Below are positions 12,001-17,561 of a DNA stretch of 64,000 nt, piece by piece. Position numbers: made by a program. The DNA comes from Vulcanimicrobiota bacterium (GTDB taxonomy: Bacteria; Vulcanimicrobiota; Vulcanimicrobiia; Vulcanimicrobiales; Vulcanimicrobiaceae), in the NCBI GenBank assembly GCA_963820825.1, contig CAWGBN010000008.1, positions 1 through 64,000 on the forward strand, given 5' to 3'. Within the stretch, counting starts at the first letter, position 1; each line of letters starts with the position of its first letter.

Positions 12001-15000
12001 GAATCACCAGCCGCAGCGTATCTCGCATCACCGTGAGATCGGCAAAGATGCGCGTCGTCCGAAAGAGGGCGTACCGGTCGCGCTTCACCACCTCGATGCG
12101 GCCGAAGACGCCCACCGCGCTCTCGAGCTTGTCGTAGAGCGCGACGAGCGCGGCCGGCCGGTCTTTGAGCAGGCTCGCCGCGTCGCCGGTGCCGCACGCG
12201 TGGCGCTGGTTGACCCGACGAAAGGTCCGCTTGCACCGCGGACATGCCCAACTCGCCGGCACTCCGGTCAGATCTATTTTGCGTCCTGGATCAGCTGTTG
12301 CACGTCGATCCCACGTTTCACCGGCCACAGAAGGCTCCAGACGAGCTTGAGGTTCGTCTGCGGCGAGGCGAGCGGTCGCGTAACGTATGTATAGTAGAGC
12401 AGCGAGAGCGAGATGAGCTGGTCGCCGTCTTTGAACGTTTTCGTCACTCCTCCGCCGAGCGGCACCGCCCACTTGTTCTGCGCCGCCGTCCAGTTGGCGG
12501 TGATGATCGGCGCCGACGAAAGCGCCCAGCCATTCTTGATGTTATAGTTCAGGAAAGGCTGGGTTAAAAACGAACTCACGTTGAGCCGCGACGGACCCGC
12601 GAACGACCACAGCTGCGTGAGCCGAGCGTATTCGGCGCCGGCGGTGCGGCCGAGGGTTGATTGAGAACCGGTATGATGGTCCGCGCGATCAGGGTCATGT
12701 TTTGGCCGAGCATAATCGGAACGACCGGCTGAACGTTGAGATTGTACTGCATTCGCGTGTACGGCCCGTATCCGTAGTTGAAGTTGTTCTGAAATGGGAC
12801 GACGGCGATATTGCCGACGGGGTTCTGCGAGATCTTGATGATGGCGAGCCGAATCGCCGCTGTGCCGGCGTCAACTCGGATGTGTCAAAGCCCCCGGTCT
12901 CGGATGGGGCCGGGGTCGCAGCCTGCTGCGCGGACGCACGCGGCGTCGTAATGGCCGCCAGGATGCAGATTGCGACGACGAACGTACTCTTCACTAGAGG
13001 TACTATATCGCGTTTCGCCCGTCCACCGCTATCACAAAACCGCAAGGTCTTCGCGCGGTAGGAAAAGCGGAGTGCGGCGCCTCGGCAGCCAATGTGGCCT
13101 CGTCGACGCGGAGGGAGGTATTTTATGCGACGTCTACTTCTCGCTATTTCACTCATCCCCGCAACGCTGCTCTTCGCAGCCTGCGGCAGCGGCGTTCAGC
13201 CGCCGGGTGCCGGCACGGCCGGCGATCTTACGACTCTGCGTCGCCTGCATCGTAAGCATACGCCACCCTTCCCTCCGCCTCTGCGGCACCGCGTAACTGC
13301 CGCCGAGCGGTCGCGCGCGAAAGCGGGCGGGTGGGAGCGAGTCTCGGCGCCGGTCTCCTGGAGCAGCGGGCCGGGAACGGAGTTGCTGATGACCGACGGA
13401 ACGGTTCTGGTCCAGGATTCTTGCACGTCGAACTGGCACCGGCTGACGCCAAATCAAAACGGCAGCTACGTTTCGGGAACGTGGAGCAAGGCCGCCTCGA
13501 TGCCCTCCGGCTACAATCCGCTCTACTTCGCCTCGGCGGTGCTCCCGAACGGCTATTTGATCGTTAACGGGGGCGAGTACAACGGCTCGGGCTGCGCCGG
13601 CGCCGAGACCAATCTCGGCGCGATCTACGATCCGTTCAACGACACGTGGACGGCCCTCTCGCCGCCGGCGGGTTGGTCGAGCATCGGCGACGCTCAGAGC
13701 GTCGTGTTGGCCAACGGCACCTACATGCTCGGCAACTGCTGCTACGTCTATCAAGGGCTCTTCAATCAAGGCTCGTCGACCTGGACGCAGACCGGCCCAG
13801 GCAACGGAAAGGGCGATGTCAATAGTGAGGAAGGCTGGACGCTGCTGCGCAACGGTGACGTTCTGGCGGTAGACGTGGTGACGGCGCCATACGCTCAACT
13901 CTATAACCCGAGCGCGAACAAGTGGACCTCCGCGGGCAAACTCCCGGTCAATCTGGTTGCAGGCGACGAGATCGGACCGGCAACGCTGCGCCCGAATAAC
14001 ACGGTCTTCGTCGCCGGCGCGACCGGAGCGAACGTGGTTTACAAAGTGAATCGCGGAACCTGGACCCAGACGCAGAGCTTTCCGGTCGTCAACGGCGCGC
14101 AACTCGACGTCGCCGACGGACCGGCCGCTCTGCTCGCCAATGGCGACGTCATGATCCCCGCGAGCCCGGGGTTGTACAACGCGCCCGCTTATTATTTCGT
14201 GTTTGACGGAACCTCGCTCACGAGCATCGCGGCGCCGCCAAATGCGCCGAACGACTCAACGTATAACACGCGGCTTCTCGTGCTGCCGACGGGTCAAGTG
14301 ATGGAGACCGATGGTTCGACCGACATCGAAATTTACACCGGGCACAAGGGCGGTGCTCGCTTTGCGCCGGTCATTACATCGGTACCGTCGTCGCTCAGCG
14401 CCGGCGGCACGTTCACGCTAACGGGCACCGGCTTGAACGGCATCTCGCAGACGAGCATGTACGGCGACGATGCTCAACAGGCAACGAACTATCCACTCGT
14501 GCGCATCGTTAACGGTGCAAGCGGCAAGGTCGTTTACTGCCGCACGCACGGATTCAGCTTCATGGGTGTCGGCTCCAGTCAGAGTGTCTCGACCTCATTT
14601 GACGTACCCTCGAGCGTAGAGCCCGGCGCCGCCACCTTGGTGGTCGTCGCGAACGGCATCCCATCGGCACCTGCGGCGGTTACCGTAGAATCGTCGCGAC
14701 GCCGTCACTGAGCCCTGAGCCCACACTCGGGTCCTCGCTTGCGGACTGGAGGGATTTGTGAGAGAATCCCTTCAGTCACAAAAGCGCGATCTTTCGAGCG
14801 GTCGATAATATTGCGCCACTGAAAGATCGGTACGATTCTAAGCCTCCTTGCCTACCCGCCGAGCGGCGACACCCACCAAGCCTATCTTCGGATGAGCTCG
14901 GTCGGTTCAGTGCGTCCGCCCTCGCTCAGAACCCCGCTTTTGACCGACCCGTCACACCAAAACCGACAAAGGGAGAGCTAGTCATAGCTGTTCGCAATAG

Positions 15001-17561
15001 AAAACAACGAAACCGCGTGCGCGTGCCCAAAGTGGCCGCGCCGCAAAATGTCAAGGAATCCCCACTTGAGGTAATCGGCAGCATCAAGCAAGTTTTCCCG
15101 AGCGCGACGTTCTCCGTCGAGCTCGATAACGGCCACGTCGTCCTCGGCCACATCGCCGGACGCCTGCGCCGGCATCGCATCCGAATTCTTCCCGGCGATC
15201 GCGTAGACTTGGAACTCTCGCCCTACGATTTAACGAAGGGCCGAATCGTCTATCGCTATCGCGCCGGCGAAGCGCGGCGAACGTCGCCGCGATCCGACCA
15301 ACCAACTTAAAATTTATTTAGGAGACCCACATAGTATGTATACCGATGAAACATTGAGCTGCCTCGACTGCGGGCGTTCGTTCACATTTAGCGCAAGCGA
15401 GCAAGAGTTTTTTGCCACGCGCGGCTTCACCAACAAACCCGGACGATGCGGCGACTGCCGAGCCGCTCGCAAGGCGGCCAACGGGGGCCAACGCGGCCCG
15501 TCGTCTCGCGGCGGCGCCCGCGAGCTCTTCAAAGCAACGTGCAGTCAGTGCGGCGGCGTCGCAGAGGTTCCGTTTCAGCCGCGGACCGGCCGACCGATCT
15601 ATTGCCGCGACTGCTTCTCTTCGCAGCAGGCATATCGCTAGGACGTGAGCCCGCGAGTTCGCCGCCGCCTCAACGGCCTCGGCCTGGGTGTAATCCACCT
15701 CGCGGCGCTGACGGCGTTCATCCCGGGCACGTTCGAATGGAGCGCGGTGGCCGCCGCTGCCGTCGTCCTGTACGTCACCGGCGGGCTCGGGGTCGCTCTC
15801 TGCTTCCATCGCACGATCACGCATCGCGGTTTGCGACTGCGCAAGCCGCTCGAGTACGCGCTGAGCACCCTTGGTACGCTCGCACTCCAGGGCGATCCGA
15901 TTCGCTGGGTCGTCATTCACCGCATCCATCACGCGCACTCGGACGTGGAAGGCGACCCCCACGGACGCGACCGCGGCTTTCGCTGGGCACATATCAACTG
16001 GCTCTATTGGCCAAACGATGCGCTGCCGACCAAGGGCGACCTGCAGCGGTTTGCGCCGGACTTGTATGCGGACCGCTTCTATCGAGCGCTCCCGTACGCG
16101 CAGTGGCCGCTGCACCTGGCGCTCGCCGCTCTTCTCTTCGCGCTAGGCGGCTGGAGCTGGGTAATCTGGGGGATGGCCGTTCGCCTCGTCGTCGGATACC
16201 ACGCTACGTGGCTGGTCAATAGCGCGGCGCACTCGATCGGTTACCGCAGCTACCGCACGCACGACTTATCCACGAACTGTTGGTGGGTTGCGCTTATCTC
16301 GTGGGGCGAAGGCTGGCATAACAATCACCACGCGTTTCCCTATTCGGCACGGCACGGTCTTCGCTGGTTCGAAATCGATCCTACGTGGTGGATCGTGAGG
16401 GTGCTCGCACTCTTCCGTCTTGCCGACGACATCCGGATTCCCTCGAGCGGAGCGCTCCTTCGCGTCAAAAAGGAAGCTGTTTCGGCGTAACCCGAAAAAC
16501 GCCCGATTCGCAGATATCGATGATCTGCTGCTCGCTCAAGCGTTGAAACGTCTTGTTCCCGAACTCGAACGACTCGCCGACTCGGACCTCATCGTAGCGC
16601 GCCTGCGCACCGAAGTTCAGCGGCGGCCGCAGTTGCAGCGCCTGCTTTTTGAAGTCGACGCGATAGGCTTGGTCTTTTCCGAACAAGACGACCTCGCCGC
16701 GGCTGTTGGTGTAGCCCCCATAGACCGGCTCCGAAAGCGCCGGAGAGCTTGGCCCTTTCCCCGTGATCCGTATCGCGAGGCTAGCGATGGGGGAACTCAT
16801 GAGTAAGTTGCATTTACGGATAACGCTCGAAAAGACCTTTAATCGCAAGCGAAGCCTCGCGTCTTCGGCGCTACGGCCAATCCCAAATGAGGCCTTCTGC
16901 CGGCGCGCCGCTGCAGCCGGATAGTCCGTAGAGAACGAGCGCGCCGCTGCCGATTGCGAAGAGCAGCAAGGCGCCGGCGACGAGATAGAGCGTCGTTCGA
17001 GCCGACGAGCGCTGCGCGCTGCGGCGCGCGGCGAAGCACACCGCCAGCGCGACCGCGATGAATACGGAAATGAGCGCCGCCAACCGCATCAGAAAGAGCG
17101 CTTTGGCGTGCGGACAATATCGCGCCGACAGATCCTGTGCGACGGAAATCTGCAGGTGATCCATGGCTAAAACAAGCGGCTCGACGAGCACCAAGAGAAG
17201 GCAAAGAATGCACCAAACCCGGCGGCCGCCGCGATGAGGAACAGGAGCAGCGCGCCGGCGTACGCGCAAATGCGAAGCGCCGCGCTCTTGCTGCGCGATC
17301 GGCCCCATGCGACCAATCCAAGTGCGGCGCTGCACGATAGAACGATAATCGTCCATACGATGGCTCGCGCAGATGCGTCTTGCCCGAGGCACGTTAGCGT
17401 CGTGAGACTTACCGCAGAGACGCCGGATGCACCGAGTCCCATCGAGTACGGCGCCGAGGCGGAGCATCCGTAGAAGGTAACGAGCCCGACCGCAGCGGTG
17501 CAGAGCGCGAAGAACGCCAGCACGCCCGACTCAAAGTGCGATCCCCGGCGTCGCAGTATGA

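Follow-up and report, generated by a model that had tools for sequence, protein, structure and literature searches.

The window, a 64,000-nt stretch of a Vulcanimicrobiota contig, carries a short conserved leader followed on the plus strand by an upstream ORF, an IF1 paralog (infA2), a zinc-finger protein and a membrane desaturase (Table 1). Domain matches agreed with the first-pass annotation for these last three genes, and infA2 scored 101.6 bits against the equivalog model TIGR00008 (cut-off 61.15). That annotation had called infA2 a second IF1. It is indeed an extra copy, but the host genome holds three IF1 genes rather than two, the third (C8:513252) with an in-frame TAG just 5' of ATA.

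Table 1. Features of the leader and its operon, in window coordinates.
Feature	Position	Strand	Details
Putative sigma-A-type promoter	14739..14767	+	-35-like TTGCGG 14739-44, 17 nt, TG plus -10-like GAGAAT 14759-67
Leader motif	14784-14827	+	Pattern match
Motif blocks			A GCGCGATC 14784-91, TTTCG 14792-96, GGTCG 14800-04, GCGC 14813-16, GAAAGAT 14821-27
5' hairpin P1, proposed ON state	14784..14816	+	GCGCGAU/AUUGCGC, inner UCGA/GGUCGA
Final long hairpin, proposed OFF state	14788..14832	+	P2 UCUUUCG/UGAAAGA plus variable inner stem P3
Upstream ORF	14835..14981	+	48 codons from an AUU that lies 9 nt past GAAAG; predicted translation
infA2, IF1 paralog with basic N-terminal extension	14971..15310	+	GGGAG Shine-Dalgarno (SD), 8 nt, AUA at 14984; 108 aa
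Two-domain treble-clef zinc-finger protein	15336..15641	+	PF13451 + PF23477 / TIGR04272, CxxC-x17-CxxC; 101 aa
Membrane fatty-acid desaturase	15645..16490	+	PF00487; 281 aa

The extended -10 element described earlier ahead of the motif was borne out across loci: TGn-xAxxxT lay 10-22 nt 5' of the motif in 117 of 149 loci, compared with 2 of 163 coding controls, and a TTG[AC][CT] -35 element was found in 47. From the sequence, transcription would be expected to start near 14774. A consensus promoter scanner did not call the 14739-14767 site.

Distribution of the leader and history of the operon

The window contained one motif match against 0.00 expected from 100 shuffles, and the host genome has a second copy at C8:632938-632981. 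A strict pattern matched 48 of 121 family genomes, with no matches for the reversed-pattern controls, and a covariance model built here matched 62 of 71 family genomes but 1 of 79 genomes from other families of the phylum. These counts uphold the motif as real, and its reported absence from Rfam was likewise confirmed: the best Rfam 15 match in window 14000-17000 had an E-value of 1.7 and fell short of the gathering score, and eight other motif loci gave none at E<=1. Together the results support a previously uncatalogued, conserved, cis-acting leader RNA of the family. Neither the motif nor the non-AUG starts described below appeared in the literature searched, mostly the main texts of open-access papers; supplementary motif tables of ncRNA surveys may still affect how novel the motif is. 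In the helicase tree, sequences from records that carry the labels Acidoferrum, Actinomycetota, Limnocylindria, Rhodospirillales and Alphaproteobacteria fall within the family, and are therefore cases of mislabelling, mis-binning or transfer. Motif matches outside the family at L114, L132, L145, L164, L171, L179, L181 and L185, and the sole viral match (L402), were rejected, as they lacked the anatomy or the genes.

Among 147 distinct pattern matches, the gene 3' of the motif was a DEAD-box helicase in 110, IF1 in 27, a zinc finger in 5, and unclassified or frameshifted in 5. The host helicase has 397 aa and is RhlE/CshA-like, scoring below all NCBIfam cut-offs. An intact operon of leader, helicase, IF1 paralog (IF1b), zinc finger and desaturase was found in two genomes (L395 and L394); elsewhere it is duplicated or partly deleted, and what had been proposed as a regulon is mostly this one operon. 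The word regulon overstates the case because duplication of the helicase operon leader gave rise to the copies that precede IF1 and zinc-finger genes. The window copy has lost the helicase by deletion and has in its stead the AUU-started upstream ORF, which occupies the helicase place of other leader copies and whose stop ends 2 nt before infA2. Where IF1-led leaders have such a start, the ORF ends between -46 and +20 of the IF1 start in 19 of 21 cases (3 and 9 in shifted-frame controls), and 4 of 26 leaders retain sequence that aligns to helicase 5' DNA.

Predicted alternative folds over the Shine-Dalgarno sequence

The first-pass annotation had proposed a pseudoknot whose 3' arm was CGAAAGAU; the window copy instead has UGAAAGAU. 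For the pseudoknot to form, a loop 1 of 0 nt and a loop 3 of 3-5 nt would have to span both stems (76 of 138 copies). A-form geometry disfavours pseudoknots with such a first and last loop, and we hold this fold to be doubtful. More plausibly the two pairings exclude each other, as two competing hairpins, with the 3' block being the SD sequence. In the final hairpin UCUUUCG pairs with CGAAAGA, which is the SD and the complement of the host 16S tail (ACCUCCUUUCU); the tail pairs with the GAAAG SD at -6.6 and -8.3 kcal/mol. This P2/P3 hairpin occludes the first gene's SD, GAAAG-NN(N)-GGU, and leaves GAAAG with a median unpaired probability of 0.001. It was more stable than the fold constrained to pair blocks A and D in 143 of 143 leaders.

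Nascent transcripts were predicted to adopt a different, SD-freeing fold. The GCGC/GCGC pairing of P1 was present in the nascent minimum free energy structure of 108 of 110 leaders, at least 4 of the 7 anti-SD bases were paired in P1 in 53 of 55, and the P1 fold had a z of -2.1. GAUC/GRUC pairing was rejected as the main ON alternative, being probable in only 1 of 143 nascent transcripts. In these calculations the nascent fold had -16.4 kcal/mol versus -26.0 for the final fold, and the computed refolding barrier rose from about 15.7 at 25 C to 17.1 at 10 C by findpath, which leaves out pseudoknotted intermediates. The energy gap was nearly flat from 5 to 37 C; any cold sensing must therefore be kinetic.

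Two-sided changes were seen in P2, where U-A becomes G-C in L212 and L214 and the paired sequences differ in L215 and L218. By a parser that selects the best-pairing partner, over 138 copies that include one probably spurious row, P2 pair 13 alternated between G-C and G-U (88 and 37), the partner at P1 pair 5 was C in 58 and U in 59, and P1 pairs 1-4 were kept in 136-138. No two-sided change was found in the P1 GCGC core among the leaders compared, so support for the ON fold comes from predicted folding and from wobble changes. Covariation in alignment A1 did not exceed shuffles (159/500), its core stems being nearly invariant. For P3 the partner-swap score was 3.56 versus 3.22 +- 0.08 (0/500 as high), and within the GGUCG subtype the swap was not significant (82/500). 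The invariance of the sequence exceeds the needs of pairing, which hints at a bound factor.

Non-AUG starts of the helicase and IF1 paralogs

The conserved AUU, AUC or AUA (AUH) starts and the upstream ORF, both absent from the first-pass annotation, hold most of the mechanistic information. In a tree of 102 motif-led helicases, 80 have an AUH start and 17, in three places, have AUG; 20 of the 102 start with AUG or UUG behind the same leader. ATT or ATC stands in frame three codons before a conserved Phe in 71 of the 78 helicases that lack a canonical start, but in none of the 78 when either shifted frame is read, and GAAAG lies 9-13 nt 5' of the AUH in 70 of 77. Helicases of relatives have ATG at the AUH position. 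The 5' end of the host helicase reads in-frame TAG, then ATC ATC TCC ATT TTC, and its first Met is at about residue 110. The IF1 paralogs behave alike, with an AUH start after an SD in 45 of 50 distinct loci (ATC 23, ATA 14, ATT 8); for both gene types the AUH is conserved after an SD and there is no canonical alternative. The automatic annotations probably mis-start these genes. Some IF1 paralogs have additional, non-conserved GTG codons further in.

Conserved AUH starts are textbook for infC, and the host infC itself begins with GGAGG, 7 nt and ATA. Judged by their sequences, the AUH starts of the helicase and IF1 paralogs are the signature of infC (IF3) autoregulation. Host rpsL is also AUH-started, and rsfS, tatC and pck possibly so; the ATT start of rpsL is not a conserved one, recurring in none of the 32 further genes that were read out of 36 fetched.

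Candidate control, its alternatives and the zinc-finger family

We favour, with some reserve, a translational on/off leader of the RhlE/CshA-like helicase operon that joins an RNA-fold layer to a start-codon layer. P1 would form first during transcription and hide the anti-SD, so that ribosomes load, and the more stable P2/P3 would later close the SD. Since this refolding is predicted to be slow, the gene would stay on in the cold or when RNA-remodelling activity is missing; it would be switched off by the helicase or an operon-encoded chaperone. Initiation at AUH would require weak proofreading by IF3/IF1, as for infC, a situation that could arise when 30S subunits are immature or scarce or when the factors are at low levels. 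In the window, the leader would drive the AUU-started upstream ORF, whose ribosomes would be handed to the AUA-started IF1 paralog and then to the zinc finger and desaturase. The sequences themselves establish the conservation and place of the motif, the identity of the SD, the hairpin that closes it, the AUH starts and the past of the operon, and the order and barrier of folding come from computation; cold or helicase feedback as the trigger, IF3/IF1 control and this coupling are all conjectural. Assembly-defective 30S subunits do initiate at non-AUG codons, which IF3 represses, as does IF1 in an rbfA mutant (PMC6868393). IF3 and IF1 levels rise after cold shock (PMC7873864), which would repress AUH starts and so pulls against cold induction.

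A binding site for a protein such as the zinc finger or the IF1 paralog, or for a small molecule, possibly with a compact tertiary fold or pseudoknot, whose occupancy instead of folding kinetics opens or closes the SD, seems unlikely to us, though it would account for GCGC...GRUYG...GCGC being invariant in sequence rather than covarying, and for the conservation of the G-R of GRUYG, which in the GAUCG subtype the final hairpin leaves unpaired; the operon also encodes basic zinc-finger and IF1b proteins. Yet SD/anti-SD identity and the use of bases in two folds partly explain the invariance, the pseudoknot form would need the short loops given above, 41 of 50 motif-led helicases have no adjoining IF1b or zinc finger, and L212, L215 and L218 have lost the GRUYG block. 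We find it more improbable still that the leader is a constitutive damper, whose stable hairpin and poor start codon hold a harmful helicase low, or that its hairpin is opened by helicase or ribosome activity, with P1 a mere folding intermediate. At every temperature the closed hairpin prevails (143/143), and it alone carries two-sided changes, but a damper would make superfluous both the invariant apical-loop GCGC complementary to the 5' end and the keeping of leader and open upstream ORF once the helicase was deleted.

The flat energy gap led us to reject an equilibrium RNA thermometer melting on warming. The SD-occluding hairpin does have G-U pairs and internal loops, but at about -20 kcal/mol at 37 C it leaves an SD unpaired probability of 0.001, and helicase, IF1 and desaturase suit cold, not heat; we regard this reading as very improbable. 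The same holds for a DNA operator just 3' of the promoter: its fixed place 11-22 nt past the -10 element and its invariant palindromic words would fit, but each spacer between the blocks differs in length by as much as 12 nt, substitutions more often give G-U than another mismatch, the 3' block is an SD at start-codon distance, and about half of the inner blocks have GGTC where the others have GATC, which is itself not over-represented genome-wide. No Dam- or HIP1-like word enrichment was found in the host genome.

The favoured on/off leader resembles three systems. In infC an AUU start controls IF3 synthesis (PMC4705826). The likeness is an AUH start after a proper SD, present also in host infC; here it lies on a DEAD-box helicase and IF1 paralogs and is joined to a predicted RNA switch. 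E. coli DeaD autoregulates through its 5' UTR (PMC7430678), again a structured leader before a helicase gene whose product could remodel it in negative feedback, but the deaD leader has 838 nt and acts via Rho and RNase E, whereas the family leader has about 60 nt and covers the SD. The cspA mRNA keeps its first-adopted fold (PMC9947658), and the mechanism proposed here would share with it two alternative folds with unequal ribosome access, a dependence on folding history and chaperone feedback; the family leader is much shorter and has no sequence or Rfam similarity to it, and stand-alone CspA was not found in the family. Across this family of soil bacteria, the leader and the AUH starts look like a two-layer feedback on the RNA-folding and translation machinery. 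If true, start-codon-fidelity feedback extends to RNA remodelling and to IF1 itself, immature ribosomes up-regulating their own assembly factors would have natural test cases, and the 60-nt leader would be a compact candidate for translation-level helicase autoregulation.

The reported lack of CspA held: a CSD domain was found in 0 of 25 genus genomes and in 7 of 101 family genomes, never stand-alone but inside open frames of 219-420 aa. The identity of helicase, IF1 and desaturase supports the proposed cold-shock-like gene set, and suggests cold induction of the leader genes. A broader reading, possible but doubtful, is that Vulcanimicrobiaceae swap the CspA circuit for a self-sensing module, in which the 60-nt leader, trapped kinetically, reports RNA-chaperone capacity and the isoleucine starts report initiation fidelity, gating the helicase, an IF1 paralog (its own fidelity feedback and a CspA stand-in), a treble-clef zinc finger acting as RNA chaperone and the desaturase. 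The IF1 paralog, as its own start-codon-fidelity feedback factor, would then be a bacterial counterpart of eIF1 autoregulation.

A CspA-like role of the zinc finger is conceivable. The five zinc-finger genes of the host had been placed beside cold-shock genes; three adjoin helicase, IF1 or desaturase, and the other two adjoin lumazine synthase/IF-2B-family and flavin-oxidase genes. The functional hint drawn from this is weak, since the family of proteins occurs in 146 of 151 phylum genomes and its neighbours outside Vulcanimicrobiaceae are not cold-shock genes: 45 ORFs scanned at 24 loci, mostly of other families, included no helicase, IF1 or desaturase. Archaeal members of TIGR04272 / PF13451 + PF23477, which share these domains, bind zinc and occur in multiple copies; the part of that paper used here takes transcription as its starting hypothesis and leaves cold unmentioned (PMC12704099).

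The protein itself contains no CSD domain. A fusion of zinc finger and CSD was looked for; none occurred in 57 longer proteins scanned among 150 matches listed, nor among 120 listed of 592, 9 further proteins or Atlas rows, lists that favour close relatives. A structural model gave two small zinc domains with no clear match among solved folds (best Z 3.4). Of the loci compared, only those of Vulcanimicrobiaceae linked the zinc finger with helicase, IF1 and desaturase; in this family the zinc finger lay directly 5' of the desaturase in 10 of 29 sampled family desaturase loci and one entry (P0006) was a fused protein.

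Distribution and genomic setting of the leader motif

Two copies of the conserved motif of a leader of about 60 nt were located in the genome; chance alone would be expected to give 0.00 matches in the window. By a strict pattern the motif occurred in 48 of 121 genomes of the family Vulcanimicrobiaceae, and the reversed pattern matched nothing. A covariance model built from 77 copies matched 62 of 71 family genomes; outside the family it matched 1 of 79. The first-pass annotation had called the motif a conserved element without an Rfam family, and both points held; no Rfam family matched it. 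In the sole out-of-family genome (G256), the helicase score and open frame were the same as those of genome G012, which suggests transfer or binning.

By eye, a leader was recognisable in the upstream DNA of 23 of 24 in-family orthologous helicases (drawn from about 65, mostly ones missed by the strict pattern); none was recognised upstream of 8 second helicases or of 7 helicases from outside the family. A species-level genome collection yielded at least 119 motif stretches (in front of a helicase in at least 85, of IF1 in at least 17 and of a zinc finger in at least 3, with at least 14 unclassified); named true matches were Vulcanimicrobiota/Eremiobacterota records or were nested among these in the helicase tree. 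These loci may overlap with genomes flagged as unpublished (G100, G028, G019, G051, G008, G029, G021, G096, G041 and G268), which enter the tallies (strict pattern, covariance model, helicase orthologs, cold-shock domain and PF13451, among others); no conclusion rests on those genomes alone. Neither the motif nor the AUU, AUC or AUA (AUH) starts of these genes were found described in the literature searched, exclusive of supplements.

Of 149 loci, 117 had a TGn-xAxxxT element 10-22 nt upstream of the motif, as did 2 of 163 controls; if this element is the promoter, the motif would sit close to the transcript's 5' end. Behind TGn, the first base of the -10-like hexamer was mostly G or C instead of T (GACACT, GATACT, CATAGT), which may be a trait of this lineage's primary sigma factor.

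The full series of leader, helicase, IF1 paralog (IF1b, here infA2), zinc finger and desaturase occurred at two loci (L395 and L394), of which the two loci studied here are complementary subsets, one keeping IF1b, zinc finger and desaturase and the other helicase and zinc finger. Because 41 of 50 motif-led helicases stand without IF1b or zinc-finger partners, the helicase is, as gene order indicates, the primary target of the leader. Helicase 5' DNA was still alignable in 4 of 26 IF1-led leaders (68-71% identity), and an AUH codon 8-13 nt past GAAAG was kept in 21 of the 26. In 19 of those 21 the ORF reached -46 to +20 nt of the IF1 start, compared with 3 and 9 in shifted frames; the best offset was picked per leader, the interval was fixed with the data already known, and the leaders share ancestry. 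At L001/L295 (G063:C3) and L008 (G075:C1), the helicase behind the leader was broken or reduced to a remnant, with IF1b or zinc finger-desaturase next in line; these are apparently helicase losses caught in progress.

One leader preceded two tandem helicase genes at L296 (G016:C57), and in one genus (L297, L252) a gene that looks PNPase-like from its sequence followed the motif-led helicase. Similar short ORFs sharing the stretch EPVYGGY.N.RGE...RPPLN.GAQAR lay beside both IF1 paralog loci, and the ORF on the strand opposite them had no Pfam match. Further desaturases were seen 3 kb downstream of the window operon and, without a leader motif, directly after another zinc-finger gene.

Coordinates of the leader copies and associated features in the genome under study (G000)
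Feature	Position	Strand	Remark
Leader motif copy 1	window 14784-14827		upstream of infA2-zinc finger-desaturase
Leader motif copy 2	C8:632938-632981		upstream of helicase-zinc finger
Upstream ORF from AUH	window 14835-14981		ends 2 nt before infA2 ATA
infA2 start	window 14984		ATA; GGGAG + 8 nt upstream
Short ORF	window 16465-16848	-	beside infA2 locus
Short ORF	C8:513337-513759	+	beside third IF1 locus
Third IF1 gene (L199)	C8:513252	-	GGAG + ATA
Desaturase	window 19694-20596	+
Desaturase	C8:154414-155721
rpsL	C1:75507	-	GAGGAG + ATT, apparent start

Start codons of the helicase and of other genes

In the genome's own helicase, a TAG shortly behind the motif closed the frame, which then ran on as ATC ATC TCC ATT TTC, with the first Met only at about residue 110. 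The conserved N-terminal Phe could be placed in 108 of 110 helicases examined, whose in-frame codons were only ATT/ATC/ATA in 77, ATG in 21, TTG in 9 and none in 1. Nine of these canonical codons lay only 0-2 nt past GAAAG, too close to be starts. ATT, ATC or ATA stood exactly three codons before Phe in 71 of the 78 helicases lacking a canonical codon and in none of them in either shifted frame; in relatives, ATG or TTG stood at this position or one codon earlier. A stricter recount of 102 helicases gave AUH 80, AUG 17, UUG 3 and none 2; a quick, unrooted tree of the helicases had AUG arising or surviving in three places.

Among 50 distinct loci of the IF1 paralog, a Shine-Dalgarno sequence (SD) preceded ATC in 23, ATA in 14 and ATT in 8, while 3 had no SD call and 2 had GTG. 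The third IF1 gene carries no leader motif, and a stop codon in frame closely precedes its ATA; the gene after this IF1 looks, from its sequence, like one for an ECF sigma factor. Housekeeping infA started with ATG. The genome's own infC (GGAGG, 7 nt, ATA) has the SD and AUH-type start known as the signature of IF3 autoregulation (PMC4705826). AUH starts extended beyond the helicase, IF1 paralogs and infC. An apparent ATT start of rpsL was confined to this genome: 0 of 32 other rpsL genes read had it, and 7 family relatives used GTG, TTG or ATG. Genes for RsfS, TatC and PEP carboxykinase (rsfS, tatC, pck; L398, L399, L400) are candidates for starting at ATC or ATT behind an SD, with no ATG close by.

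Proposed competing hairpins and probable translational control

The 3' end of the genome's 16S rRNA reads ACCUCCUUUCU. Pairing of this tail with the motif's GAAAG and following GGU gave -6.6 kcal/mol for the window copy and -8.3 for the helicase copy, compared with -9.0 for infA2 and -10.5 kcal/mol for infC. By its sequence, the 3' block is the ribosome-binding site and the 5' UCUUUCG a mimic of the 16S tail (anti-SD). For every one of the 143 leaders, the long hairpin UCUUUCG:GAAAG was more stable than a constrained alternative fold (A:D), the margin being 8.5-10 kcal/mol between 5 and 37 C; this hairpin left GAAAG unpaired with a median probability of 0.001.

Sequence support for this hairpin was modest. 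At its pair 13, 88 of 138 copies had G-C and 37 had G-U; in these counts the parser picks the best-pairing partner, one probably spurious row is retained and 45 candidate rows lacking a stem or a downstream gene are left out. In L212 and L214, G-C replaces U-A at pair 9, and L215/L218 rebuild the hairpin from different sequences; covariation in the motif alignment without these diverged copies was not above shuffles. The inner stem was 3.56 long with its own partner, against 3.22 ± 0.08 with swapped partners (0 of 500 swaps as high), and showed no excess within the GGUCG subtype (82 of 500).

In predicted folds of transcripts cut just past the second GCGC, 108 of 110 distinct leaders paired the 5' GCGC with it, and at least 4 of 7 anti-SD bases were paired in 53 of 55 (every second leader). 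Median energies at 25 C were -16.4 for the nascent and -26.0 kcal/mol for the final fold, with a findpath barrier between them of 15.7 at 25 C and 17.1 at 10 C; the excess over dinucleotide shuffles was modest for both (median z -1.9 and -2.1). The two helices had initially been read as a pseudoknot. Such a fold would lack a first loop, and its last loop (3-5 nt long in 76 of 138 copies) would have to bridge about 12 base pairs, which A-form dimensions make unlikely. Two competing hairpins fit the motif better. A protein or ligand bound to the leader stays a serious rival, because a two-sided base change of the GCGC core was found in none of the copies compared.

We consider it quite probable that the leader is a translational switch over the SD. 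We lean, if only slightly, towards a fuller reading in which the leader would open kinetically, a helicase or chaperone would close it, and IF3/IF1 would gate the AUH starts. Earlier papers describe feedback on deaD via its own leader (PMC7430678), history-dependent folds of cspA (PMC9947658), and initiation at non-AUG codons by assembly-defective 30S subunits, suppressed by IF3 and, in an rbfA mutant, by IF1 (PMC6868393). The rise of IF1/IF3 after cold shock (PMC7873864) would oppose AUH initiation, so that the start codon may act as a brake instead of sensing cold. The leader is real, uncatalogued and family-specific, a variant of already known translational feedback systems.

Candidate substitutes for CspA

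The reported lack of CspA-type proteins in the genus was borne out: none of 25 genus genomes had the cold-shock domain. Across the family it was present in 7 of 101 genomes, solely inside long frames. CspA-sized matches in the phylum sample came from 4 genomes of two other families. PF13451, the zinc-finger domain, was absent from 5 of 151 phylum genomes, 2 of them among those 4, a distribution that fits replacement, but in only one or two events.

For the zinc-finger family, zinc binding alone is demonstrated in the excerpt of PMC12704099. Five zinc fingers had been placed beside cold-shock genes; 3 of the 5 copies adjoin the module and the other 2 do not. This, the near-universal presence of the zinc finger in the phylum, its unrelated neighbours elsewhere and a structure model without a clear fold match count against a specific cold role. 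In favour of IF1 as a CspA stand-in, IF1 complementation has reportedly been seen in B. subtilis. The E. coli csp quadruple mutant was not rescued by IF1, according to PMC9947658. One 428-aa protein (P0006) was a fusion of PF13451 with a fatty-acid desaturase, and a locus in another phylum family (L305, G184:C57) carried three zinc-finger genes in tandem, reminiscent of tandem csp genes.
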